NCBI GenBank assembly: GCA_051294375.1 | Contig: CM119263.1 | Span: forward strand, 14,214,537 to 14,278,413 | Length of the DNA: 63,877 nt | Reading direction: 5' to 3' | Origin: Paraspadella gotoi | Lineage: Eukaryota; Animalia; Chaetognatha | In this document: piece after piece, positions 37 to 61,670 of the stretch | Layout of the letters: each line of letters opens with the position of its first letter | How positions within the stretch are numbered: position 1 is the first letter of the stretch | Translations under genes and position numbers: made by a program | Notes under the pieces: generated by a model | What the model saw: the letters and a program-made list of their open reading frames with translations, nothing else | Database searches by the model: none | What the model was told of the DNA's origin: nothing

Positions 37-2585
37 CGTACAGAGCCTCAGATATTTTTTTATTTTTAGTATAAAGGTGTTTGATAGATTGAATTTCCTC
101 TCCGGGATAAACAAACAGTACATCATGGTGTTGTTTCGAAACAAAGAAAAAATCAAAACAAAAGGCCAGAGTCCACGCGCTTTGCGCTCCCTCCGACGGA
201 TTCGTCGGACGCTGGCCCATCAACGTCCTCCGATGTTTGATAAAGGTTGCCTTGGTGCGTCACGTTCCTTCCGTTGAGTCGGAGCGCCTCCTTTCGATGA
301 AGTTTGCTATTTTGTTTTTACCTCCAAAAAAAAATAAATGAAAAAGAAAATCAAAATGAATCACAAGCATGAAATTGTAGAAGACAAACTTTATTCTCTC
401 GCCTCTTTTCTTTGGGACGTGATACTAGATTATATTATGATTTAAAGACAAACTTCCTTCTTTTCTTTTCTCTTTTCTTTTATCTATTCCTACCCGCGTG
501 ATTTATTTTCTTTTCTCATTTTTTATGGCGTAACAAATTAGCCTTCGTTGCGCGGGCAGGTTTTCTTTTCTCTCTCTCTCTTTATCTCTCTCTCTCTCTC
601 TTGCACCTTCTTACTCTTTTCTTCTAAACATTTTATGCTCACAATTCTTTAAACCCAACTCTTTACCCGTTTTTTTTTCTGCTCTTTCTGCTGTTCCGTA
701 TATTAAGTATATTCTCCTCTCATTTCCTATTCCACTGTTGCTTTCCACTTTCTCCACTCCAGTAAGTTTTACCCTTCAACCCGCGACACTTCCATGGCTT
801 TAAAACCCCCTTTAATCCAGCCCCGCCCGGATGTAATTCACTCCATTCACATTCTCTCACTCTCTCGCACGACGCGGATTCTCTCTTTTCAATTTTTATC
901 CTTATTTTCGGTCATTCATCTCTGCCTTGGAAATTCCAGCAAATCTTCCGCGCCTCGGAAACCGTCTCCCAAGACGCATAAACAACAACAACAACAACGA
1001 CAACCGCAATGACGACTACAACATACACGATCATAACAACAAAACAAGAAACAGCAGTAAACGTAAATAGCCGGACAAANNNNNNNNNNNNNNNNNNNNN
1101 NNNNCGAGGAAGGAAGTGGAAGTGCAGCAGATCAGAGATCTTCTTCGCTCTCTTCCCGTGATCTTTCTATATGTCATACTCACAAGCACGCTGTGTCGCG
1201 AAATGCGCGATGGGGTAGAAAGATCCGCGTGAATGTTTAATACGGGCCCACTCCACCCGGAAGGAAGAGAGGCTGCGCGGGGGGGATGCACCAAGGAGAC
1301 TTCGAGACGGGCACATACACGCAAGCCCTCGCCCGAATCTCCCCCGGTTGTTCCTTTCCTGCCTATTTTTCCCCCTCTCGGTTTTTTCCTTCTGCAGCCC
1401 AGTCCCGCGGGGCCGGGGAATCTCTGCCCCCTGAGATTTCCCACCCCTTCCTCCCCCACTGCACGATTAGTTTATGGGGAGTTTTTTCCCCGGTTACGTT
1501 CTTGACTGTTGTTTTACCGACGGAAGCTGGGTAAAATAGAAAATGTCAGCCTTACTTTTTCCACCGTCCCTCGCAAGGGGAGAAGATCTCAGTCTCTCTC
1601 CCTTCTCTTCCCGCTCTCTCTGCCTCTCTGTCTCTCTCTTATCTCTCCTCTCTCTCGTCTCGTCATCTCTCGGTTCTCTCTCTCGGTAATCTCTCTCTCG
1701 GGTCTAAGAGGCGTGGCGTCTCCCTCCCGCGCCTTTTTCCGGGGTTTAAACTTAACGGGCGATAATTCCCTTGGAGATTTCCATCGCTTGTGAGAGACAA
1801 AAGAGGGAAATGGGAGAGGAGGGGGGTGTTTCGGTGAGCAGGAAGTGAATGGGGGAAATGTGAGACTGAAAATCTAAAAATCAAAGAGAAGTTCGTCTTA
1901 ATAGTATTAATAGTACTAATAGTATAAATAAAGAGAAGATAACAACGCTGTATTTTGAATGGTTTTACCTCGCATATAATCAAGCAGCTAATCAATATCC
2001 GTTTTTTTAGTTTTTCTATTTAAGCACCCTTTAATATTTTCGGGGGTAAAACTTCATTTAGAAAGGAATTCAGACCGATAATACTAATAGTTTTTGTTTA
2101 GATTAGATATATAACAAAAATGAAAGTTCTAGATCTCACGAACAGAAAAAAAAACTTGTACATCTTCTTCAAAACCTTTCGTCGGCATTTTATCAAAAGC
2201 AAGATAAATAAAAAGTAGCAAGGCCTCTTTTGTTAACATGTTTTCTTTCTTCGATCGCGACACAAAAGAAAAACAGAATCTGAGGAAGAAAAAAAAAACA
2301 AAAACAAAAGAAAAAACATAAAATCAAAGGAGAAGAAGATTCATAGAAACACGAAATTGAGGGAGGAAAGAAAACAGAAGAAGAAAAAAAAAGAGAGAGA
2401 ATCGACAGAAACTCAAAAAAAAGAAACGTTTTCTTATTTTTTTTCTCTTCATTTTGAAAGCCGTAATTATCAATTTTAGCGTGTCGCCTCTCTCGCTCTC
2501 TATTACTACTACTACTTCTCTTTTTCTTTGTTTCTCATTTTCTCTCTCTGTATTTACGTTTAAAAAAAACTGGTTTTTAAATTGA

Positions 2586-2702
<117 letters not shown>

Positions 2703-4052
2703 CTCTCCGTGATATCGAAAAAGAAGAATTTGTCATCTTCTCCCTTCGCCGAAAGCGTCGTTTGTCATCTTCTCCTCTCATCAACTCTGTCCTTGTGTCA
2801 GACGCAACTGTCGTCGTTGATAAATGTTAAGAAATCGAAAACGACGACGACGATGATAATAAAAATGATGGTGCTGAGAAGGGGATGATGTTATTATAAG
2901 GATGGTCATAATTATCAAGTTCCGAAAATAGAGGCGACGACGATGACGACGACGACGACGACTAAAACGACGCTGATGATGACGATGACTTTTTAATTCA
3001 AGATTCTGCTGCTTCGATTCGATTCTGAATTTGAGAAAACTTGAAGTGGATGAGCTTCTGAACAACGAATCTAGTCTCTCATCTTTTAGGAAAACGATTT
3101 TAATTGCCTTAATCCGTATTTTAATAACACTTTTACTATATTTTATCCTCAAGTAGCCCATCAGAATAAATAGGAAAAAAAAAAGATAAAATTTAGCAGA
3201 GACGTTTCCAGATGATTTTCCCTTGACCAAAAATGGTTCAATCTATAACTTCGTCACTTCAATCATAATTCTACCATCCGTCCATCCCTCACCGTCACTT
3301 CTCCCCCTCGCCCGATTTTTTCTTTCATCCGTGATTCACTTCGAGATTCAAAAAAAAAAAANNNNNNNNNNNNNNNNNNNNNNNNNNNNNNNNNNNNNNN
3401 NNNNNNNNNNNNNNNNNNNNNNNNNNNNNNNNNNNNNNNNNNNNNNNNNNNNNNNNNNNNNNNNNNNNNNNNNNNNNNNNNNNNNNNNNNNNNNNNNNNN
3501 NNNNNNNNNNNNNNNNNNNNNNNNNNNNNNNNNNNNNNNNNNNNNNNNNNNNNNNNNNNNNNNNNNNNNNNNNNNNNNNNNNNNNNNNNNNNNNNNNNNN
3601 NNNNNNNNNNNNNNNNNNNNNNNNNNNNNNNNNNNNNNNNNNNNNNNNNNNNNNNNNNNNNNNNNNNNNNNNNNNNNNNAAAAAAAAAAAAAAAGAGAGA
3701 GAGAAAACTAGATGAATTCGAAAAAAAAACTCAACAAAGAGAAAAAACAAAAGAGAAATCCGTGACCAGAATTCGTTTGTCATTCGAGGACTCGTCATCC
3801 CGCATCGATCCAAGGGGATGGCTTAATTGTCAGCCCATGACGCTGGCATTTCGCTTTCTTGAAGCGATTAAATTTAAAGCGATTGTTTTTTCGGTTTTTT
3901 AAGGCGATCGCCTCAGGGCGAATGTCCTCGATGCTCGGCCCCTCTATCGAATTCCCGCCGAGCTTCGATTTGAGCGATTGTCATTCGATCGATTATATCC
4001 AATAGCTGAGGAGGGGCGCTTTCCTTCTAAATCGGCAGCGTTGCGAATGCAT

Positions 4053-4250
4053 AAAATTGGTAGAACCAATATAAAAATTATCCATTTATTTAATAAATAA
4101 GCTATCTTGCCCCTGACTTTGGACAGGCTTTGATGGTTAAAGGCCTCCATCACTCTTACAAGATAATGACATATCAGGTCCCTGCAAGCTTTCAATCTAG
4201 ACTCTCTCATAGTCTCGTTTAATGATTCCCAGAGTACCTGGCTTCCCTAT
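4053..4250 (-). mobile_element. Dispersed copy of the ~315-bp twister-bearing repeat family (conserved core only)
   Basis: Reverse complement of the unit tandemly arrayed at 39965-40987 and near-identical to 30216-30350. It diverges from the array unit after ...cttccctat (~4250). Confidence 0.85.
4103..4165 (-). ncRNA. Twister-ribozyme-like motif (P5-permuted), variant copy
   Basis: Minus strand reads UAUCUUGU AAGAGU GA UGGA GGCCU UUAACC AU CAAAG CCUG UCCAAAGU CAGG G GCAAGAUA. It differs from the 30268-30330 copy at the cleavage-site UAA (UUA) and T2 (AU), so it may be impaired. Confidence 0.6.
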
Positions 4251-4340: not shown

Positions 4341-4501
4341 TCAGGTAATCCTCTTCCAATCAAATCGGCGACCCTTCAGGTAATCTTCTTCCAATCAAAT
4401 CGACGACCCTTCAGGTAATCTTCTTCCAATCAAATCGACGACCCTTCAGGTAATCTTCTTCCAATCAAATCGACGACCCTTCAGGTAATCTTCTTCCAAT
4501 C
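4341..4501. repeat. 35-bp minisatellite, ~4.6 copies
   Basis: Unit tcaggtaatcttcttccaatcaaatcgacgaccct starts at 4341, 4376, 4411, 4446 and 4481. Confidence 0.92.
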
Positions 4502-4597
4502 ATTGTCATTTTCAATCGCGATATCCAAGCACCGATTCTTTAAGCTTTATACAAACCCACTCTCTTCATTCTCATAGGGGTCGATCCATCAACGTCT

Positions 4598-20431: not shown

Positions 20432-20856
20432 AAATCAATTCTGTTTCTCCTCCTCCTCGGTACTAAAGTCACTGTTTTATGATCGGAGTTGAGAATACGC
20501 GGCCGAGTTTTGTGATACGTCGCGAAAAATCACAAGAACCAATCAGTAGTGACGATCGTGTCCCGGCGTTCAATCAGCGGTGATGATGAACGATCAATGT
20601 CGACCGAAGTTTCAGTCACTTTTTAGCTTATTACAGGTTGATTGTTTCATTACCGCCCTCGATGTGGGGATTTTAAGAGAGAAGTTAAAATCGTAAAACT
20701 GACATTTAAAGTTTTGATGAATTGAAATAGACTACGTTTAACGATAACGATGACAGATATATTATTTTGGAAAATGAAAGGTATACGGAGAACATAGTTT
20801 TTTTAAAGATTTGCTCTTTGGAAGCTCGTTTCAACTAGTTACATCTTATTGAATTA

Positions 20857-21430
20857 ATGTTAATTAGAAGATCAACTAATTTAAAGCTTACATATCTAGG
20901 TTTCAACCTTAGTAGTGAAAGAGACAGCTTGTTTGAGCCAAGCAAAGAATTGGTATCTTTTTTTAGACCAAGTAACTGTTTGATAAATGCTTTGTTAAAG
21001 CCTTCAGAGGAATTGTTGATGAAATTGTATTATACTAACTGTGTTCCAGTTGTCCTTTATGACTGTGAAGTAAAAACGTACGTAATATTGTACAGACTTA
21101 ATGTAGCTGTAAATGATGGTGTCCGAAAGATTTTTGATATAATCGATGGAAAAGTGTGAGAGAACTTAGGAGTATGTTTGGATACCACGACCTATCAACA
21201 ATTTTTAATAATCGTAAGAAAACCTTTATCTCAAAGATCTCCACAATGAAAAATAATGTTCTTCAGAAACTTGTTCCGTTTTTTACAACATAAGAATTAA
21301 TTAATTAATTTGATTTAATTTAACTGTTTTTTTTTCTCTCTATCTATTTTATGATGTTTTTCGTTTGTTTGTTGATGATGATTGTACTGAATCAACCTTG
21401 TTGTATTCGAATAAAATCGCATATATATTA
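20857..21430 (+). mobile_element. 5'-truncated non-LTR retrotransposon (LINE) remnant, post-RT C-terminal region plus 3' UTR
   Basis: Translation contains KLTYLG...LLMKLYYTNCVPVVLYDCEV...NDGVRKIF, then after a frameshift RWKSVRELRSMFGY...LQKL. These resemble the YLG and PxxxYxCE motifs downstream of LINE RT domains. AATAAA is near 21410. Clade not determined. Confidence 0.7.
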
Positions 21431-29199: not shown

Positions 29200-32100
29200 A
29201 TGAAGGCTCTCAAGCTCATCTTCGTCCTGACCCTAGTCGGTAAGTACTGTCATGTTTCATGTCGCTCAAGAGCAACGGGCGGCCCGAACGTATTAGCATT
29301 AGGTAATGGGGTGATAGGAAAAAAACGATGATTAGACCTTTCGGTGCTTTCTCCCACAATAACTAATAGATAATCGATTAATTTTGTTCTTAAAAAAACA
29401 TTAGACTTTACGTTTTTCCTTGATCCTCCGGCTAAATATTATTTATTTTTTTTTTAAATTAGGACAACAGTTGGTTCAAACGTATAGCAGACCCAGAACG
29501 CATATAAAAACTAATCTCTTACGTAAGCTTTATTCAAGTAAGTTCAACATTGATTGCTTTCAAAGTGAAATTCGTTGTACATATGTATAAATTTATTGAC
29601 GAATTCATTAGCGACTGTTTTTCTTGTTTGTTTTTTTTTTGTAGAGCTCAATGATGACGGATCTAATTCCAAAGAAATTTTACGATCTAAAAAGGGTGAG
29701 TACAATGTAATTTGTAACATTAAGTTAGATATCCTTAGCAGTAAGTTTGCATAATACATAAATTGTACCGCAGTACGTACATATACCTAACAGGCTAGGA
29801 CTATGATAGTTGTAATGTTATTAATTGATAAAACACGATTAGAATTTTTTTGGCAACTCTTTCAATATTAAAGGAAAAAACATACTTCATTACTCCTGCA
29901 CTGCTCCAAACGTTTGTAAACTATGAAAAGTTTATTGGAGTCAACTTTTTATAAGGAGACAGTGATAGATAGAGTATAAAATATACAATTTTACAATTGT
30001 ACATCATACAATAGAAATGAATTAATTCAATTAATTCAGAGACATTCATTTTTTATAAATGGTGATTTTAAAACTACAATAACAAACTTTGACCAAAGTA
30101 TTATTTCTTTATGAAGGAAATTATAACAAACGATATAACTATAAGGACGATATTGAATTTGGTGATGATAATTTGACTGTTTATTATGACCGAGCAGCTG
30201 ATTACACGGAGAGTTATGAAATTGGTACAACCAATATAAAAATTATCCATTCATTTAATAAATAAGCTATCTTGCCCCTGACTTTGGACAGGCTTTGGTG
30301 GTTTAAGGCCTCCATCACTCTTACAAGATAATGACATAGTAGGTCCCTGCTATTATTAGTAATAATGTTTTGAGAATAATCAAGGCAAGTTCAGTAATGA
30401 AACATTATTCTTAATTTATTTCAGAATTACTCTCAAGGATAAGCGAACTTCTCAACTTGACTCTCAATAACTCTTCAGATTCCAAAAGTTCCGACAACTT
30501 GATCACTGAAACAACTCAAAACCCGGAATCTGGGGATGAATACGTTGTAACTGAAGGACCTGATTCTAAGTCTCAAAACACTTCTGCAAATAGTGAAAAT
30601 CCAACTGAAAGTCCTGATTCTTCTAACAATGATGCAACTGAAAGTCCTGATCACTATGATTCAGTGACTCAAAGCAATAGTGCTCATGGTAATAATCCAA
30701 CTGAAAGTCCTAATTATTCCGATTATTCCTCTCACGATGATGCAACTGAAGGTCCTGATTACTATGATTCAGTGACACTGAAAGCAATAGTGCTCATGGT
30801 AATAATCCAACTGAAAGTCCATATTATTCCAATTATTCCTCTCACAATGATGCAACTGAAGGTTCTGATTACTATGATTCAGTGACTGAAAGCAATAGTG
30901 CTCATGGTAATAATCCAACTGAAAGTCCATATTATTCCGATTATTCCTCTCACTATGATGCAACTGAAGGTCCTGATTACTATGATTCAGTGACTGAAAG
31001 CAATAGTGCTCATGGTAATAATCCAACTGAAAGTCCATATTATTCCAATTATTCCTCTCACAATGATTCAACTGAAGGTTCTGATTACTATGATTCAGTG
31101 ACTGAAAGCAATAGTGCTCATGGTAATATCCAACTGAAAGTCCATATTATTCCTATTATTCCTCTCACTATGATGCAACTAAAGGTCTGATGGTAATAAT
31201 CCAACTGAAAGTCCATATATCCTATTATTCGCTCTCACTATGATGCAAATGAAGGTCCTGACTACTATGATTCAGTGACTCAAAGCAATAATGCTCATCA
31301 TAATAATCCAGCTAAAAGTCCTTATTATTCCTATTATTCCTCTCACTATGATGCAACTGAAGGTTCTGATTACTATGATTCAGTGACTGAAAGCAATAGT
31401 GCTCATGGTAATAATCCAACTGAAAGTCCATATTATTTCCTATTATTCCTCTCACTATGATGCAACTGAAGGTCCTGATGGTAATAATCCAACTGAAAGT
31501 CCTTATTATTCCTATTATTCCTCTACTATGATGCAAATAAAGGTCCTGACTACTATGATTCAGTGACTCAAAGCAATAGTGCTCATCATAATAATCCAGC
31601 TAAAAGTCCTTATTATTCCTATTATCCTCTCACTATGATGCAACTGAAGGTCCTGATGGTAATAATCCAACTGAAAGTCCATATTATTCCTATTATTCCT
31701 CTTACTATGATGCAAATAAAGGTCCTGACTACTATGATTCAGTGACTCAAAGCAATAGGCTCATCATAATAATCCAGCTAAAAGTCCTTATTATTCCTAT
31801 ATTCCTCTCACTATGATGCAAATGAAGGTCCTGATTACTATGATTCAGTGACTCAAAGCAATGCTCATGTAATAATCCAACTGAAAGTCCATATTATTCC
31901 TATTATTCCTCTTACTATGATGCAAATAAAAGGTCCTGATTACTATGATTCAGTGACTCAAAGCAATAATGCTCATCATAATAATCCAGCTAAAAGTCCT
32001 TATTATTCCTATTATTCTCTCACTATATGCAACTGAAGGTCCTGATGGTAATAATCCAACTGAAAGTCATATTATTCCTCTCACTATGATGCAACTGAAA

Positions 32101-34074: not shown

Positions 34075-37000
34075 ATGAAAGTAAGTTTGCTAATTACTAA
34101 TTACGACGTAATGCCGAATTTATCATGTAGCTAAAACACACGGATCAGACAACATTGGTGCCTGATATCATGCAAATTTTCCCTATTCATTTTTTTTTTT
34201 TGGTAACGTTTTCTCTTTCCCTCCTCTACTCTATGTACCTCTCTACTCCAAGGCTGTCCGCCAAGTGAGCCGCGAGCGCCTCGGCTTCGGCCGGAAGCGG
34301 AGCGCCTCGTCGGGGGGGCGGTCGCGTTCGCAGGACTCGGTGGAGGGAGCCGCGGAGACGAGCGGCGCCCTGGAGCTGAAGCCTCTCGACGACGCCGAGC
34401 CGTGTGGCGACGCCGCGGAACACGGCGACATCGACGCCGTCAAAGAGATTCTGACAAACGCCTTCGCCGATCCCAACGCCTGTAAGTTAAGCGGCGTTCG
34501 ACGGAGTTTGTTTTTTTGTTGATATATTGTGTTTTAAAATTAATTGGTAGTATCACTAACCATTATTGATTATTTATGACCAATTAAAAAAAAAAAACCC
34601 TCTTCGCTCGGATTCCCCGTTCGTTTGAAAGGCTCCAACGGAAAGACGGCGCTGTACTTGGCGGCGGCGGCGGGCACTTGGAGGTCGTCTGCTTCCTCCT
34701 CTCGCACGGCGCCTCCCCCAACCGGAAGTCCAGTCTCGAGACACGCCCCTCCACGTGGCCGCCGCCAACGGGCAGACTGATATCGTCGAAAAGTTGATCG
34801 CCGAAGGTACAAGAAATGTTATCAATTAATTAATTAAGAAAGAAAGATAGAAAGAAGAAAGAACCAATCGATCAATCACTTAATTAATTAAGTCAATAAA
34901 TCATAAAACAAATAAATCAAATGAATTTATAATAAATATAACATTATCATTATCACTCAACACTGTAGAAAAAATACAGGTTGAAATGATACAAGTCGTC
35001 GTCCTCCCAATTATCATAGTCATCATCAACTATGATATTAAATTAAGTCAATCTATCACATCCTCGTCAGGCTGTCTGAAGACGGACGAACTGGATCTCT
35101 ACGAACGCACCCCCGCTCCACCCGGCGGCGGCGGGCGGCCACTTGGAGGGGTGACGCTGCTGCTGCTACGTGGCGCCGACGCGGACCGCGTGGACGGATC
35201 CTCCGAGTCGCCGCTCCACCTCGGCGTCGGCGCGGAATCACTACCCGTCGTGCAAGCGCTCATAGAGGGCGGCGCCGACGTAACCTCTTGAACGAGGAAG
35301 GACAGACTCCGTTGCACATCGGTAAACAATCGAGCTTAAAATATAGCGATATATATTCATAAATGGAGTGGACAAGTAATAAAAATAGTCGAAATGTTAA
35401 ACGCAAAAATTAGTCAGTTCTTGGAAATGTTTCGTCGTCCCAATTTGTCGGCTTTGGAGTCGAATGCCGGTGTACTTGACCCGGAACTCCTTGACTTTTC
35501 TAGAAAATTTCGCCAAAGAGAAAGAGAGAGATCAGTACAGTGGCTGAAACTCGAAAGCTAGTCGAGTTGACCGTGACAAAGCTTGCTTGCATGTTTGCAT
35601 CCCATGATCAGCCTGCGAAGAAGGTCACGTGGAAACGACACAAATCCTCCTCGCCGCTCAGGCGGACATGAAACCTCTTTGGATTCACACGGAGTGGCGG
35701 CACTCTACGCCGCCACCTGCAAAGATCATTTCGAGGTTTGTTAGGTTGGCGCCGTTGGCGAAGGATATGATTCGACCCTGGATCATGGATGTTGACCGTT
35801 ATTCATGCATTTCGTTTTTACAGATTGTTCGTTGCTCTCCAGTGCACGGGGCCAATCTCAATATTATGAACTCTCGAGGCCAAGGTGAGACGGTTTTCTC
35901 TCTCACTCTCTTCTCTCTCTCTCTCTCTCTCTCTCTCCTCTCTCCTCTCCTCTCTCCTCTCTCTCTCTCTTTCTCTCTCTTCCTCTAAAAGAAAACCATC
36001 CCCTCTTCAGCACCCTGCACATGGCTGTCCTGCAGTCCAACCTTGAAATCATCCAAGAACTCGTGAACGACGGGGCGTCGCTCGACGTTCAGGACGACGA
36101 CGGTTACACCCCGCTGTACTTGGCTTCGTGGAATCCTTACAAGTGCAGGTGATTATTCCTTAATCTTTCATTGATAAATTCTTTTATCATTCTCTCATTC
36201 AATCACTCATTAAAACTCTTTTCTTCAATCATTCCTTTGTTTCTTTTTGACCTTAAACATTTTTCTAATCGAAAGAACAACGTCTCTACCCTTTCATACT
36301 TGATCAAAAACGTGCTAACATGAACATTTGTGATAACGGCGGATCGGCTCCTCTGCTGAGGTCCTTCTATCGAAAGGACAAAACAAATGTTTGAATCGCT
36401 TCTCAGAAGGTAAATTGGAGGGATTTTTGGTTGGGTAATCTAAATATAACTCTAAGACGTCACAAAATATTATAAAAAGATAATTATTTGTGAATTCCGC
36501 AATCTACCAGCGGAGCGGACGTGAACATTGGAACCTGTGATCTTCTATAACACGGCCGTCTTCCTCGGCGACGTCCACACCTGCAAGATGCTTGTCCAGT
36601 CTGGCGTCGATCCTGGAGGAACCAGTGGCTCGATCCCAACAAGGTCACTGCCAAGGGAGAAGCAGAAGGACGCCACAAAGAACAAAGAAGTTTCAGGTGA
36701 ATAAGAAAGAAAAAGAAAGAAGGAAAAGAAGAAAGAAGAATAATTTTTATCTTATTCGTTATAAAATCAAAAGCATTAAAACCGTTTTCTTCCCGCCCTC
36801 CATAATCGCTTCAGCATGCTGCACGGTTGGTTGAAGCGACTCCGGTCCGAACCTCGTCGCCTCAAGCACGTCTGCGCGCTGACGATTCGCAGACACGCCG
36901 TGCCCCCTCTTGCCTCACAGGGTCAATCGGCTCACTCTTCCGCAATGCTTGAAGGTCGGCGATTTAGAAACAAAGAACTTCCTGAAAGAATCAGTTAATT

Positions 37001-39964: not shown

Positions 39965-40987
39965 ATTATCTGTAAGAGTGTGGAGGCTTAAACCACAAAG
40001 CCTGTCCAAAGTCAGGGCAAGATAGCTTATTTTATTGAATGAATGGATAATTTTTATATTGGTTGACCCAATTTCATTAAATTCAGTCCTGTATTTGAGG
40101 CTAGTCGGGAGTACAATAAGATCCCCGATCTAATACTTAAGGGAGTGGTTTTTCTACAATTGAAAACATTCTTTGAATATTTTCCACTTCATTGATAGCG
40201 AAGCAGTACTCTGGGAGGAATAACGAGACTGTGAGAGAGTCTTTGATTGAAGCTTGCAGGGACCTGACTATGTCATTATCTTGTTAAGAGTGATGAGGCC
40301 TTAACCCACCAAAGCCTGTCCAAAGTCAGGGGCAAGATAGCTTATTTATTAAATGAATGGATAATTTTTATATTGGGTACCAATTTCATTAAAATTCAGC
40401 TCCTTGTATTTTGATGCTAGTGCGGAGTTACAATAAGTATTTCCCCGATCTATACTTAAGAGTGTTCTTTTCATACAATTGAAACATTCTTTGAAATATT
40501 TTCCACTTCATTTGATAGGGGAAGCCAGGTACTCTGGAGTGAATAAACGAGACTGTGAGAGAGTCTTGATTGAAAGCTTGCAGGACTGCTATTGTCATTC
40601 TTTTAGAGTGATGGAGGCTTAAACCACCAAAGCCTGTCCAAAAGTCAGGGCAAGATAGTTATTTAATGAATGGATAATTTTTATATTGGTGTCCAATTTC
40701 ATAAAATTCAGCTCCTGTATTTTGATGCTAGTGCGGGTACAATAAGTTTCCCCGATCTAATACTTAAGGAGTGGTCTTTTCATACAATTAAAAATTCTTT
40801 GAAATATTTTTCACTTCATTTTGATAGGGAAGGCCAGGTACTCTGGGAGTGAATAAACGAGACTGTGCAGAGAGTCTTTGATTTGAAAGGCTTGCAGGGA
40901 CCTGCTATGTCATTATCTTGTAAGAGTGATGGAGGCCTTAAAACACCAAAGCCTGTCCAAGTCAGGGCAGATAGTTATTATTAAATG
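39965..40987 (+). mobile_element. Tandem array of ~315-bp units, each junction carrying a twister-ribozyme motif (retrozyme-like)
   Basis: aaaccaccaaagcctgtcc recurs at ~39990, 40303, 40621 and 40941. Twister motifs lie at ~39967-40024, 40277-40339, 40598-40657 and 40914-40973, so the array starts and ends with the motif. The sequence is indel-noisy, but the consensus matches the clean 30268-30330 copy. Confidence 0.8.
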
Positions 40988-41606
40988 TGGGAGATTGTTT
41001 TAAAACATGTTGAGCATTAGCTCTAACCTATTTGTAACCTTGTAGATTTACTGGGCGAAGCCATTTCACTCTCAAAAATAAGAATCAATCCAAATCACAA
41101 GATTAATTAAATAAAAGAGAGCCGAGAGAGAGAGAGCTACAGATAGAGAGAGAGGCTCAAATAGAGAGTTCAAAGCTGCATACAAATATAATTCCAATAA
41201 TTAGAATTCATTTCAAAGAGTTAACAAATATTTCATCATATTACCTAATGTTTCCTGGGCAATCTCCTAAAAGTTTTAACATCTACTTGCCCTTTACTTC
41301 CTTTAAAATTTGAATGACAATTAAAACGACTTTCGACTTTGAGAAAATACTACCATAATTGGATCAGAAAGGTTCTCGTCCAATCAGATTTAAGAACTAA
41401 ATTTAACCAATGAAATCATAGATGAGACGAGTTTGGAGAATTTAAGCTAGTAACGTTATGTATTCCATATATAAAACCGAATATTAATTTCGAAAAACTA
41501 ATAATATTTATAAACTATTACATTAAATGAATGGATAATTTTTATTGGTTGTACCAATTTATAGTCAGAAAGTTATATTTTCTATCTAAACTTTGCTTCT
41601 CTTTAA

Positions 41607-54851: not shown

Positions 54852-57800
54852 ATGAAGGCTCTCAGCTCATCTTCGTCCTGACCCTAGTCGGTAAGTACTG
54901 TCATGTTTCATGTCGCTCAAGAGCAACGGGCGGCCCGAAAGTATTAGCATTAGGTAATGGGGTGATAGGAAAAAAACGTGATTAGACCTTTCGGTGCTTC
55001 TCCCACAATAACTAATAGATAATCGATTAATTTTGTTCTTAAAAAAACATTAGACTTTACGTTTTTCCTTGATCCTCCGGCTAAATATTATTTATTTTTT
55101 TTTTAAATTAGGACAACAGTTGGTTCAAACGATAAGCAGACCCAGAACGCATATAAAAACTAATCTCTTACGTAAGCTTTATTCAAGTAAGTTCAACATT
55201 GATTGCTTTCAAAGTGAAATTCGTTGTACATATGTATAAATTTATTGACGAATTCATTAGCGACTGTTTTTCTTGTTTGTTTTTTTTTGTAGAGCTCAAT
55301 GATGACGGATCTAATTCCAAAGAAATTTTACGATCTAAAAAGGGTGAGTACAATGTAATTTGTAACATTAAGTTAGATATCCTTAGCAGTAAGTTTGCAT
55401 AAACATAATTGTACCGCAGTACGTACATACCTAACAGGCTAGGACTATGATAGTTGTATGTTATTAATTGATAAAACACGATTAGAATTTTTTGGCAACT
55501 CTTTCAATATTAAAGGAAAAAACATACTTCATATACTCCTGCACTGCTCCAAACGTTTGTAAACTATGAAAAGTTTATTGGAGTCAACTTTTTATAAGAG
55601 ACAGTGATAGATAGAGTATAAATATTACAATTTTACACATTGTACATCATACAATAGAAATGAATTAATTCAATTAATTCAGAGACATTCATTTTTTATA
55701 AATGGTGATTTTAAAACTACAATAACAAACTTTGACCAAAGTATTATTTCTTTATGAAGGAAATTATAACAAACGATATAACTATAAGGACGATATTGAA
55801 TTTGGTGATGATAATTTGACTGTTTATTATGACCGAGCAGCTGATTACACGGAGAGTTATGAAATTGGTACAACCAATATAAAAATTATCCATTCATTTA
55901 ATAAATAGCTATCTTGCCCCTGACTTTGGACAGGCTTTGGTGGTTTAAGGCCTCCATCACTCTTACAAGATAATGACATAGTAGGTCCCTGCTATTATTA
56001 GTAATAATGTTTTGAGAATAATCAAGGCAGTTCAGTAATGAAACATTATTCTTAATTTATTTCAGAATTACTCTCAAGGATAAGCGAACTTCTCAACTTG
56101 ACTCTCAATAACTCTTCAGATTCCAAAAGTTCCGACAACTTGATCACTGAAACAACTCAAAACCCGAATCTGGGGATGAATACGTTGTAACTGAAGGACC
56201 TGATTCTAAGTCTCAAAACACTTCTGCAAATAGTGAAAATCCAACTGAAAGTCCTGATTCTTCTAACAATGATGCAACTGAAAGTCCTGATCACTATGAT
56301 TCAGTGACTCAAAGCAATAGTGCTCATGGTAATAATCCAACTGAAAGTCCTAATTATTCCGATTATTCCTCTCACGATGATGCAACTGAAGTCCTGATTA
56401 CTATGATTCAGTGACTGAAAGCAATAGTGCTCATGGTAATAATCCAACTGAAAGTCCATATTATTCCAATTATTCCTCTCACAATGATGCAACTGAAGGT
56501 TCTGATTACTATTGATTCAGTGACTGAAAGCAATAGTGCTCATGGTAATAATCCAACTGAAAGTCCATATTATTCCGATTATTCCTCTCACTATGATGCA
56601 ACTGAAGGTCCTGATTACTATGATTCAGTGACTGAAAGCAATAGTGCTCATGGTAATAATCCAACTGAAAGTCCATATTATTCCAATTATTCCTCTCACA
56701 ATGATGCAACTGAAGGTTCTGATTACTATGATTCAGTGACTGAAAGCAATAGTGCTCATGGTAATAATCCAACTGAAATCCATATTATTCCTATTATATC
56801 CTCTCACTATGATGCAACTAAAGGTCCTGATGGTAATAATCCAACTGAAAGTCCATATTATTCCTATTTATCCTCTCACTATGATGCAAATGAAGGTCCT
56901 GACTACTATGATTCAGTGACTCAAAGCAATAATGCTCATCATAATAATCCAGCTAAAAGTCCTTATTATTCCTATTATTCCTCTCACTATGATGCAACTG
57001 AAGGTTCTGATTACTATGATTCAGTGACTGAAAGCAATAGTGCTCATGGTAATAATCCAACTGAAAGTCCATATTATTCCTATTATTCCTCTCACTATGA
57101 TGCAACTGAAGGTCCTGATGGTAATAATCCAACTGAAAGTCCTTATTATCCTATTATCCTCTCACTATGATGCAATGAAGTCCTGATGGTAATTAATCCA
57201 ACTGAAAGTCCTTATTATTCCTATATATTCCTCTACTATGATGCAAATAAAGGGTCCTGACTACTATGATTCAGTGACTCAAAGCAATAGTGCTCATCAT
57301 AATAATCCAGCTAAAATCCTTATTATTCCTATTATTCCTCTCACTATCATATGCAACTGAAGGTCCATGATGGTAATAATCCAACTGAAAGTCCATATTA
57401 TTCCTATTTTCCTCTTACTATGATGCAAATAAAGGTCCTGATACTATGATTCAGTGACTCAAAGCAATAGCTCATCATAATAATCCAGCTAAAAGTCTTA
57501 TTATTNNNNNNNNNNNNNNNNNNNNNNNNNCCTATTATTCCTCTCACTATGATGCAAATGAAGGTCCTGATTACTATGATTCAGTGACTCAAAGCAATGC
57601 TCATGGTAATAATCCAACTGAAAGTCCATATTATTCCTATTATTCCTCTTACTATGATGCAAATAAAGGTCCTGATTACTATGATTCAGTGACTCAAAGC
57701 AATAATGCTCATCATAATAATCCAGCTAAAAGTCCTTATTATTCCTATTATTCCTCTCACTATGATGCAACTGAAGGTCCTGATGGTAATAATCCAACTG

Positions 57801-59020
57801 AAAGTCCATATTATTCCTCTCACTATGATGCAACTGAAAGTCCTTCTTACTATAATGATTACTCCTCTAACTATTATAATCAATACGATCATCACGAGAC
57901 CACGACTGCCACCCCAGATACTGAAGCAACTGGAATTCCAGACTTTTTTAAATGTAAACATGGGAATTGTGGAGCCTTGGATGTAAATCCTTTCGCAAAT
58001 CCAGGTAAAGATTCTTGATAGTTATTTTTAAAAAAATTGGAACTAAAAACTTTTTAATTCCCTTTTTTACTGGTAAAAATTTGTATTCAAAGGTGCTTGT
58101 GAAGAATTAATGACAGAAATTTTGAATTGGGTTGTCAAAAATTATGACGATGATCACCTTCGTCACTTGAACCGCCGTGATCACGATCACGATCACTTTC
58201 ACGATCACTTTCACGATCACAATCACGATCACGATCACAGTCACGATCACAATCATGATCACCGTCGCCGTGATCACAATGAGAATGACCTCAATAAGAA
58301 AATTCATAATTTTTGGGTAAGCATGGCTACCAATGCCCTCTGTTTTTTCTTCAAAATTATTTTTTAATCAATTTTTTTTAATCCCTCTAGATATTTGTGA
58401 CGAATTTAATGGAAAAAACTGAAAAAATCTGCCAGCGTACTCATCGCTCGCTACTCATAAAATCGTTTCAGACGATTGTACAATATTTAGAAGAAGATGG
58501 CCACAAGGAAAGAGAAGTGAAAAGAGAGGAGAAGCTCAAAAGGGAAGTCAAAGAAATAGCAAAGGCAAAACGTATTACAAAGAAAACAGGACGAATCGGG
58601 GACCTGAAGACGATTAAAAGGATAAAGCGGGAACCAGCTAAATATTCGAACAAAGACAAAATGAAGGCGGTGTTGATCCCAAAGTTGAGGGCTTTGATTA
58701 GGAAAGGTGTGGAACTAATAAGAGGCAAGAAACTTAATAAGAAACGCTTTGAAAAAAAAAATATGCCAAAAAAAGTGGAGAATAAAAATGAAAAGAATAC
58801 TCTGAAAAGGTTAAGCTTAAGAGATATAAATCAAAAGAGTTTGGCGAAAAAGAATACGCAAAGAGTTAAAAGGAGAAATGGAAAGTTTTTGAAGAGAAGA
58901 CCGAACTTAAATTTGAGAGATAAGATGCAAAAAAAGATGAGAAAATCCAACTTTAGGAGGAAAGTTGACGAGGCAGATTCGATTAAGAAAGGATCGAGAC
59001 CTGGAAGGAAGTTCAACTGA
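54852..59020 (+). CDS. Secreted Tyr-rich repeat protein, copy B (3' exons intact)
   Basis: Intact ORFs at 57584-58018 (..FFKCKHGNCGALDVNPFANPG), 58110-58316 (DHDHDHFHDH tract) and 58391-59020 (Lys/Arg-rich), joined by GT-AG introns. Confidence 0.8.
55910..55972 (-). ncRNA. Twister ribozyme motif (duplicate of 30268-30330)
   Basis: Identical 63-nt motif. Confidence 0.78.
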
Positions 59021-59830: not shown

Positions 59831-61670
59831 ATGAAAGTAAGTTTGCTAATTACTAATTACGACGTAATGCCGAATTTATCATGTAGCTAAAACACACGGA
59901 TCAGACAACATTGGTGCCTGATATCATGCAAATTTTCCCTATTTCATTTTTTTTTTTTTGGTAACGTTTTCTCTTTCCCTCCTCTACTCTATGTACCTCT
60001 CTACTCCAAGGCTGTCCGCCAAGTGAGCCGCGAGCGCCTCGGCTTCGGCCGGAAGCGGAGCGCCTCGTCGGGGGGGCGGTCGCGTTCGCAGGACTCGGTG
60101 GAGGGAGCCGCGGAGACGAGCGGCGCCCTGGAGCTGAAGCCTCTCGACGACGCCGAGCCGTTGTGCGACGCCGCGGAACACGGCGACATCGACGCCGTCA
60201 AAGAGATTCTGACAAACGCCTTCGCCGATCCCAACGCCTGTAAGTTAAGCGGCGTTCGACGGAGTTTGTTTTTTTGTTGATATATTGTGTTTTAAAATTA
60301 ATTGGTAGTATCACTAACCATTATTGATTATTTATGACCAATTAAAAAAAAAAAAACCCTCTTCGCTCGGATTCCCCGTTCGTTTGAAAGGCTCCAACGG
60401 AAAGACGGCGCTGTACTTGGCGGCGGCGGCGGGGCACTTGGAGGTCGTCTGCTTCCTCCTCTCGCACGGCGCCTCCCCCAACCGGAAGTCCAGTCTCGGA
60501 GACACGCCCCTCCACGTGGCCGCCGCCAACGGGCAGACTGATATCGTCGAAAAGTTGATCGCCGAAGGTACAAGAAATGTTATCAATTAATTAATTAAGA
60601 AAGAAAGATAGAAAGAAAGAAAGAACCAATCGATCAATCACTTAATTAATTAAGTCAATAAATCATAAAACAAATAAATCAAATGAATTTATAATAAATA
60701 TAACATTATCATTATCACTCAACACTGTAGAAAATAATACAGGTTGAAAATGATACAAGTCGTCGTCCTCCCAATTATCATAGTCATCATCAACTATGAT
60801 ATTAAATTAAGTCAATCTATCACATCCTCGTCAGGCTGTCTGAAGACGGACGAACTGGATCTCTACGAACGCACCCCGCTCCACCCGGCGGCGGCGGGCG
60901 GCCACTTGGAGGTGGTGACGCTGCTGCTGCTACGTGGCGCCGACGCGGACCGCGTGGACGGATCCTCCGAGTCGCCGCTCCACCTCGCGTCGGCGCGGAA
61001 TCACTACCCCGTCGTGCAAGCGCTCATAGAGGGCGGCGCCGACGTCAACCTCTTGAACGAGGAAGGACAGACTCCGTTGCACATCGGTAAACAATCGAGC
61101 TTAAAACTATAGCGATATATATTCATAAATGGAGTGGACAAGTAATAAAAATAGTCGAAATGTTAAACGGCAAAATTAGTCAGTTCTTGGAAATGTTTCG
61201 TCGTCCCAATTTGTCGGCTTTTGGAGTCGAAATGCCGGTGTACTTGACCCGGAACTCCTTGACTTTTCTAGAAAATTTCGCCAAAGAGAAAGAGAGAGAT
61301 CAGTACAGTGGCTGAAACTCGAAAGCTAGTCGAGTTGACCGGTGACAAAGCTTGCTTGCATGTTTGCATCCCATGATCAGCCTGCGAAGAAGGTCACGTG
61401 GAAACGACACAAATCCTCCTCGCCGCTCAGGCGGACATGAACCTCTTGGATTCACACGGAGTGGCGGCACTCTACGCCGCCACCTGCAAAGATCATTTCG
61501 AGGTTTGTTAGGTTGGCGCCGTTGGCGAAGGATATGATTCGACCCTGGATCATGGATGTTGACCGTTTATTCATGCATTTCGTTTTTTCAGATTGTTCGG
61601 TTGCTCTCAGTGCACGGGGCCAATCTCAATATTATGAACTCTCGAGGCCAAGGTGAGACGGTTTTCTCTC

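Follow-up and report, generated by a model that had tools for sequence, protein, structure and literature searches.

The window analysed here, a stretch of 63,877 nucleotides from the chaetognath Paraspadella gotoi (GCA_051294375.1, contig CM119263.1, positions 14,214,537 to 14,278,413 of the forward strand), contains copies of a very abundant, non-coding repeat unit of ~318 bp (~320 bases) that carries one twister-like ribozyme motif per unit. A preliminary description had singled out the motif near 30.3 kb as a circularly permuted twister whose P1 stem is a palindrome without a loop; it had missed the host element, a unit resembling a retrozyme and having its 3' end fixed. The motif occurs seven times in the window, three times on the minus strand (at 4.1, 30.3 and 55.9 kb) and four times on the plus strand, in a tandem array (Table 1). 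We favour a reading in which P1 would form between two copies of the motif, and we find the same P1 design in metagenomic loci beside reverse transcriptase (RT) genes of the type found in Penelope-like elements (PLEs).

Table 1. Coordinates of the twister-like motif, its parts and the copies of the repeat in the window.
Feature	Positions	Strand	Basis or remark
Type-P5 twister-like motif (P5 to P5)	30268..30330	-	Sequence, Rfam alignment, structural descriptor
Predicted cleavage site, U30305^A30304	30304..30305	-	Alignment to the Rfam model
Conserved GA, G30316-A30315	30315..30316	-	G is the putative general base, by analogy with G45 (PMC6154101)
P1, loop-less palindrome AGGCCU, with a second copy as its predicted pairing partner	30306..30311	-	Rfam alignment, folding
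P4 (4 bp) and 8-nt L4 with the T1 and T2 partners	30277..30292	-	
Fixed 3' end of the family, at 30214-30216, after a 5-6 bp hairpin	30214..30235	-	Putative start of reverse transcription
Dispersed copy, whole, 135 bp, 5'-truncated	30216..30350	-	Within a putative GT-AG intron (~29696-30424) of a plus-strand gene, so antisense to it
Dispersed copy, ~200 bp, common 3' end, changed cut-site A and T2	4051..4250	-	Ribozyme probably inactive, judging from these changes
Duplicate of the 30.3-kb copy	55859..55992	-	Inside a 25.6-kb segmental duplication; no independent insertion
End fragment, 45 bp, common 3' end, no ribozyme	41516..41560	+	
Tandem array, 3.2 units, four motif copies	39965..40987	+	Anchor spacing 314, 318 and 319 bp

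Judged by its sequence, the window motif is a real variant of the type-P5 twister. The sequence and pairings first described are all present, including a P5 of eight pairs (30330-30323/30268-30275, seven Watson-Crick and one U.G), a 3-nt P2 strand with two pairs and a C30300.A30319 mismatch, a P4 of 30292-30289 with 30277-30280, and a UAA stretch at the predicted cut site (U30305^A30304-A30303); in twisters the cut falls at the U-A of the UAA loop (excerpt of PMC8501958). By complementarity alone, T2 has two Watson-Crick pairs (30299-30298/30281-30282) and T1 has three. In a permissive Rfam scan of 30000-30600 (601 bases), Twister-P5 (RF02684) is the top of 11 matches (30277-30319, 25.8 bits, E 0.003), with an alignment that spans model positions 1-58 and finds the core bases GA, UAA and L4 in type-P5 strand order. 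The Rfam search that had been suggested as a check therefore names the expected family, at a score under the gathering cut-off of 37.6 bits, and the whole window gave no gathering-level match; the score is lowered because T1 and T2 are pseudoknots, which the Rfam model does not score as pairs. Given this score, we class the motif as a variant that would work like a twister, outside RF02684 membership. Relative to the Rfam consensus, five core pairs are altered on both sides (two in P2 and one each in T1, T2 and P4) and one is broken, so the compensatory changes claimed for P4, T1 and T2 are borne out against the twister consensus, though not among copies of the family.

The window motif shares with RF02684 its strand order, the GA, the UAA cut site, P2, P4 and both pseudoknots, and differs in having a 6-nt loop-less palindrome where RF02684 has a long P1 hairpin, in its short mismatched P2 strand, in a U-A pair in T1 and an A-U pair in T2, and in its score. 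For a type-P5 twister a P2 of 3-4 bp is expected; a 3-nt P2 strand and an A-U/C-G T2 are likewise found in an above-cut-off Twister-P5 of a phage (locus L010, 565-623, 51 bits). A structural descriptor without P1 or P5 terms, drawn up after the motif had been seen, matches the window twice, at the 30.3-kb copy and its duplicate, and gave one match in two of 300 shuffled sequences. That the window motif represents a twister-class ribozyme active in some state is, in our judgement, highly probable.

The preliminary description combined the palindromic P1 with a T1 of four pairs. The palindrome and the missing loop stand, but the Rfam alignment assigns A30311 to P1, and therefore T1 has three pairs and P1 comprises the entire AGGCCU, with a 0-nt loop. 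In the predicted fold of the monomer the pairing probability of P1 in cis is 0, with no cis hairpin, while in trans the 6-bp self-duplex of AGGCCU is predicted at -9.1 kcal/mol. The minimum free energy fold of the monomer (-16.2 kcal/mol) pairs the 5' half of the palindrome with the start of P4 and leaves P4 a probability of 0.06-0.07; a twister-compatible monomer reaches -9.7 kcal/mol, and blocking the palindrome in folding brings the probability of P4 back to 0.87-0.88. A strand-swapped (nested) double twister is predicted at -32.5 kcal/mol, with its four pseudoknots uncounted, versus -32.4 kcal/mol for two misfolded monomers.

A metagenome scan with a pattern that required the canonical core and allowed any six bases at P1 covered 119 loci of an estimated ~190. 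Five of these encode a PLE-type RT fragment (L146, L147, L154, L191 and L155, which make up four distinct elements, L154 and L191 being one), and the 6-nt P1 linker is self-complementary in all five, against 5 of the 114 other loci. The parallel with palindromic PLE hammerheads that had been drawn for the window motif thus finds support, in that other palindromic linkers lie beside PLE-type RT genes. Among 85 distinct cores, eight have a P4 of at least four pairs and a Watson-Crick T2, and the linker is self-complementary in 5/8 of these versus 3/77 of the others (Fisher p 9e-5, with rows that are not independent); the exceptions among the eight are L164 (a tandem type-P1 pair), L160 (beside bacterial-looking genes) and L227 (a variant of L147). 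We aligned seven sequences, leaving out L212, which has a T2 mismatch and had drawn attention by its palindrome, and L191 and L227 as near-duplicates of L154 and L147. In this alignment 84.9% of 126 cells pair, and 14 of the 18 pairs change on both sides (0/500 shuffles). P1 pairs in 21/21 cells, all three of its pairs change on both sides, and its inner pair, made of adjacent bases and impossible in cis, is G-C in four sequences, C-G in two and A-U in one. T1 and one T2 pair were preset by the search pattern, so their pairing provides no evidence.

The motif sits 100-225 nt past the RT stop codon in these loci, or, in L155, just before a truncated RT, and near-identical locus pairs stay homologous up to 135 and 152 nt beyond the cut. 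The full RT proteins (655-686 aa) contain a DK-x-x-G motif together with RT motifs; they have no Pfam match, and PDB sequence searches found nothing. Telomerase RTs are the first fold matches of a structural model (confidence score, pLDDT, 56), and neighbours of the RT in the Atlas carry HTH_animal, DUF8422 and RVT_1. On these motifs and this modelled fold, the RT of L146, L147, L154/L191 and L155 is PLE-like. No endonuclease domain is apparent in the RT-linked loci, and in L146 and L147 a second open reading frame (ORF) comes next; we take this layout to be Athena-like. The hammerhead core string is absent from the eight loci tested and from the window array. Since the same P1 design stands beside a PLE-type RT, these elements likely use a twister instead of a hammerhead. 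Relatives of the RT-linked loci were absent from viral contigs, and prokaryote genomes gave one unrelated-looking match. The RT-linked loci belong to an unannotated clade of PLE-like RTs (L146, L147, L154, L155, L191; P0027-P0033, P0080-P0109) in which x-R-D-N mostly replaces YxDD and which carries an upstream ORF, fused to the RT in P0101. One member, P0027, is labelled archaeal in NCBI, probably through contamination of that bin.

The window element might instead carry a twister that cuts as a monomer; its six P1 bases would then be either a loop or a single A-U pair around a 4-nt loop, and the palindrome would be what is left of a hairpin after loss of the loop. P1 is reportedly dispensable in other twisters (PMC6154101), so the monomer might cleave slowly, and cleavage without P1 is described as inefficient in an excerpt of PMC8501958; moreover, a loop-less hairpin is palindromic by construction, and 24 of the 180 permutations of the P1 bases are palindromes. 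This explanation, which we consider unlikely, has to contend with an inner pair that covaries across unrelated linkers yet is impossible in cis, with a predicted cost of +5.6 kcal/mol for the A-U-closed loop, and with a monomer predicted to lose P4. Of the two mechanisms put forward in the preliminary description, an inter-copy P1 is favoured over a P1-less monomer by the covariation of the cis-impossible pair and the folding energies. We hold it reasonably probable that a dimer is needed, or strongly favoured, for cleavage.

The window repeat has several traits of PLEs: a fixed internal 3' end, 5' truncation, AT-rich targets and tandem copies. The three independent dispersed copies (~200, 135 and 45 bp) agree at the 3' end and differ on the 5' side, two of them reaching 46 and ~110 nt upstream of the predicted cut; no target-site duplication was seen at the dispersed copies (30216..30350 by eye). 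In the public contigs of run X3, 17,572 of 7.0 million contigs fall on a 171-bp stretch, and 258, 283 and 143 of them depart from the reference at 30214, 30215 and 30216, respectively, into dissimilar AT-rich flanks (agreement 0.39-0.40), which places the fixed end 89-91 nt past the predicted cut. Runs X9 and X12, whose RNA origin is a guess, were left out. Among the departure rows listed for this run (all but 219), there is no pile of contig ends at the cut site and no second pile such as the start site of an optional tail would give. Contig depth, summed over equivalent bins of three units as a measure of trend and not of copy number, climbs from ~0.5 million just after the fixed end to ~6.8 million just before it, a gradient of the kind that 5' truncation would give. 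Since copies run through the cut site, we infer that the template is an uncut multimer or a ligated circle. An excerpt of PMC11167929 describes comparable behaviour for a PLE of the anole, in which the hammerhead cuts at +26 and reverse transcription begins between +111 and +118, inside a stem-loop 85-92 nt past the cut, on AT-rich DNA targets and with a mostly uncut RNA template.

Most PLE insertions lack part of their 5' side and have a fixed end and an optional tail of 30-40 nt (PMC8557442), and the window array stops ~36 nt before the main 3' end (one case). Both facts would suit a different origin: an autonomous PLE, for instance a Naiad, would have left the copies behind as its 5'-truncated ends, or pseudo-long terminal repeats (pLTRs), and local amplification of such a pLTR would have produced the array, as a satellite that makes no RNA circle. 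The constant period of 314-319 bp argues otherwise, as do a contig from another run (X13) that reads on past the fixed end into the following unit and the lack of an ORF of at least 100 aa common to the array units (one 116-aa frame overlaps the left edge of the array alone), and we regard this origin as improbable. Hammerheads are reported to be missing from Naiad and from most Chlamys elements, and their role in PLEs has been stated to be unclear, perhaps that of mere parasites of PLEs (PMC8557442).

Two claims about the orientation of the copies fare less well. The dispersed copies had been said to lie all on the minus strand, but the 45-bp fragment is on the plus strand, as are the four array copies, and the 30.3- and 55.9-kb copies represent one insertion. 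The copy in the putative intron is indeed antisense to the host gene, but its orientation carries no weight as an argument; with two independent ribozyme-bearing dispersed copies, we set aside both the strand-bias and the antisense ideas.

A number of observations weigh against a PLE-mobilised element with a pair-dependent twister. The near uniformity of the family leaves no covariation across its copies, which the preliminary description had asked for, and variants inside the motif (mostly 1.3-3.0% among the 40 of 63 rows listed) touch T1, P4 and P5 as well. By dimer gain the native linker ranks 29th of 180 permutations, and only 5/8 motifs have the linker paired in trans in their best dimer fold. 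The four RT-linked elements are related to one another and do not amount to four independent trials, while in L227, a 94% copy and one-base variant of L147, the inner P1 pair is broken. When folded as circles, three array units, which carry indel errors, are 63-64% paired and show no clear gain in stability over shuffled sequences (z -0.3, -1.6 and -0.7), and the one RT profile tried found no PLE-type RT in the window. P2 is weak in the window motif and in most of its relatives (64% of cells paired in the seven-sequence alignment). The PLE-linked motifs have no Rfam match at E<=1; five of the six non-window motifs (L145, L146, L147, L154 and L155) use a P4 shifted by one base, with 6-7 pairs and a 9-nt loop, a variant that Rfam does not pick up; and a model built from the PLE-linked motifs finds the window motif weakly (top match, 12.1 bits, E 0.22). 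The shifted P4 register and the weak model match mean that, although the window and PLE-linked motifs have the same design by sequence, their kinship is unproven and they may be analogues.

Some of these points could also be explained by a decayed or chance look-alike of a twister, sitting in an ordinary dispersed repeat and not cutting at all. The sub-threshold Rfam score, the weak P2 and the lack of any purifying signal seen among copies are compatible with this, as is a rod fold whose stability exceeds that of the twister-compatible monomer by 6.5 kcal/mol, and in an excerpt of bioRxiv 10.64898/2026.07.22.740005 only 1/9 dimer constructs of hammerhead retrozymes cut. The rarity of descriptor matches in shuffled sequences points the other way. 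Among the rows listed, the window copy is also the family majority at each position, no indel of 1% or more falls inside the motif, and the three commonest motif variants lie at tolerated sites (the P5 U.G changed to U-A, 15%; the P2 mismatch base, 11%; a loop base, 4%). The ~90-nt spacing to the fixed end, too, fits the position of PLE ribozymes, and we think a look-alike very improbable. As the motif is near-uniform across the family, the loop-less P1 is the family state.

We propose that read-through transcription of an array would produce multimeric RNA in which two copies swap strands, their palindromes forming one shared 6-bp P1; every active site would then combine the 5' half of one copy with the 3' half of its partner. 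Cleavage at U30305^A30304 would then release ~318-nt monomers, perhaps to be ligated into circles, while a lone monomer would fold into a P4-breaking rod and so would stay mostly uncut and serve as template. A PLE RT would start internally ~90 nt after the cut and copy back through it into AT-rich DNA, and the outcome would be 5'-truncated copies or, over several rounds, arrays. We regard it as likely that the unit is a PLE-mobilised element of the retrozyme type. The full mechanism, in which the very abundant unit is a non-LTR (long terminal repeat) retrozyme copied by a PLE RT, with a dimer-favoured twister in the hammerhead's role, lies in our view just on the probable side.

More tentatively, and with slightly less than even confidence, we suggest that the motif is a natural obligate double twister: PLEs and their retrozymes would have recruited the twister into the hammerhead slot, the cut-site stem would likewise have shrunk to a palindrome, pair-gated cleavage would be the function for which PLE ribozymes are selected, and PLE lineages without hammerheads would often bear twisters. 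If so, pair-gated cleavage would process multimers while sparing monomers. If an unrelated ribozyme lies as far from the start of reverse transcription as the hammerhead does, and its stem has collapsed to a palindrome in like manner, this would speak for selection on pair-dependent cleavage. Retrozymes would then extend beyond hammerheads, a natural dimer-gated twister would be one that Rfam misses at its cut-off, and a concentration-gated twister could serve RNA circularisation.

The window repeat can be compared with three known systems. Metazoan non-LTR retrozymes (excerpts of PMC7229834 and bioRxiv 10.64898/2026.07.22.740005) likewise have a ~320-bp non-coding unit with one ribozyme, in tandem and dispersed copies, and a GC content of 36-38%; their units measure 170-400 nt (PMC7229834) and derive from PLE pLTRs (the bioRxiv excerpt). 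By definition they carry a type I hammerhead, whereas the window repeat has a twister; a highly self-paired monomer and accumulation as circular RNA are further marks of such retrozymes. The minimal, dimer-dependent hammerheads of PLE pLTRs (excerpts of PMC6765202 and PMC11167929) share with the window motif a palindromic, collapsed stem beside the cut site, a fixed end at a similar distance downstream, AT-rich targets and copies that read through the cut. Their stem III is palindromic and very short, and they are thought to cut as dimers (PMC6765202); excerpts on related hammerheads describe a single pair capped by a palindromic tetraloop in the axolotl retrozyme (PMC7229834) and amphibian motifs that need dimeric constructs (PMC7761336). 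In contrast, their fold is unrelated to the twister, the window unit has no linked RT ORF, and the RT-linked twisters end farther from the cut, at the distances given above. The T-variants of Schistosoma Perere-3/RTE (excerpts of PMC8501958 and PMC7761336) are retroelement twisters with a weak or missing P1, placed at the 5' end of the element, where the cut defines the end and a target-site duplication completes P1. The window ribozyme differs in being permuted and internal, near the 3' end, with copies that pass through the cut; we rejected a T-variant identity, as copies extend upstream of the cut and no duplication was seen.

In the literature screened, which comprised titles and abstract openings and had subscription papers, including the 2014 discovery paper, outside its scope, there was no twister in a retrozyme or PLE and no dimeric twister. 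The word twister is absent from PMC8557442 and bioRxiv 10.64898/2026.07.22.740005, and nine passages of the PMC8557442 supplement, matched by string search and not by structural search, contain no clear twister. Nearest to such a system come the 5'-end twisters of RTE elements (PMC8501958) and the twister-bearing viroid-like circles described in an excerpt of bioRxiv 2022.07.19.500677, and an excerpt of PMC10085705 states that no further twister permutations were found.

Other twisters came up in the viral and metagenome contigs, in which family-specific patterns of the window repeat gave 0 loci. No palindromic P1 was found in phages among 137 viral loci (121 of them drawn from ~270), where the filter passed three, namely L086, with neither a palindrome nor an Rfam match at E<=5, and two type-P1 pairs in tandem; of two loci from a further viral scan, neither has a 6-nt palindromic linker or a credible RT match. 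The phage locus L010 carries two above-threshold Twister-P5 motifs, at 281-338 and 565-623, ~285 nt apart. L232 holds, at 290-355 (minus strand), a near-canonical type-P5 twister with another perfect 6-nt palindrome and a full P2 and P5, in a 411-base context without an RT. Type-P1 twisters lie head-to-tail with almost no spacer in L004, L006, L009, L164 and L174: L006 and L009 have two Rfam matches each, L004 has one with the tail of another just upstream, and L164 and L174 have the L006 core.

Returning to the window, the tandem array contains many single-base indels, and at several of them most of the contig depth of the short-read runs disagrees with the array; these are probable assembly errors, and its motif copies may or may not be intact. 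Simple patterns found no A or B boxes of RNA polymerase III in the repeat, and a 33-codon frame, read by eye, that opens at an ATG within the motif and reaches the fixed end was set aside for want of conservation upstream. A 35-bp tandem repeat (4341-4502, 4.6 copies, 98% matches) lies ~90 bp from the 4.1-kb copy. A ~25.6-kb tandem duplication (16083-38095 versus 41879-63877, 89-98% identity) has many frameshifting indels and reflects either a duplication event of recent date or an assembly left uncollapsed and rich in errors. A short frame at 20839-21159 (plus strand) has no Pfam match and presumably resembles the C-terminus of a long interspersed nuclear element (LINE) reverse transcriptase. 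Plus-strand frames of a 108-bp tandem repeat (30415-32100 and 56257-57850) read as a repetitive exon rich in Ser, Tyr, Asp and Asn, and ankyrin-repeat exons of a multi-exon gene lie at 60834-61091 and 35100-35340, the 60.8-kb exon scoring above the Pfam cut-off for Ank_2/Ank_4.

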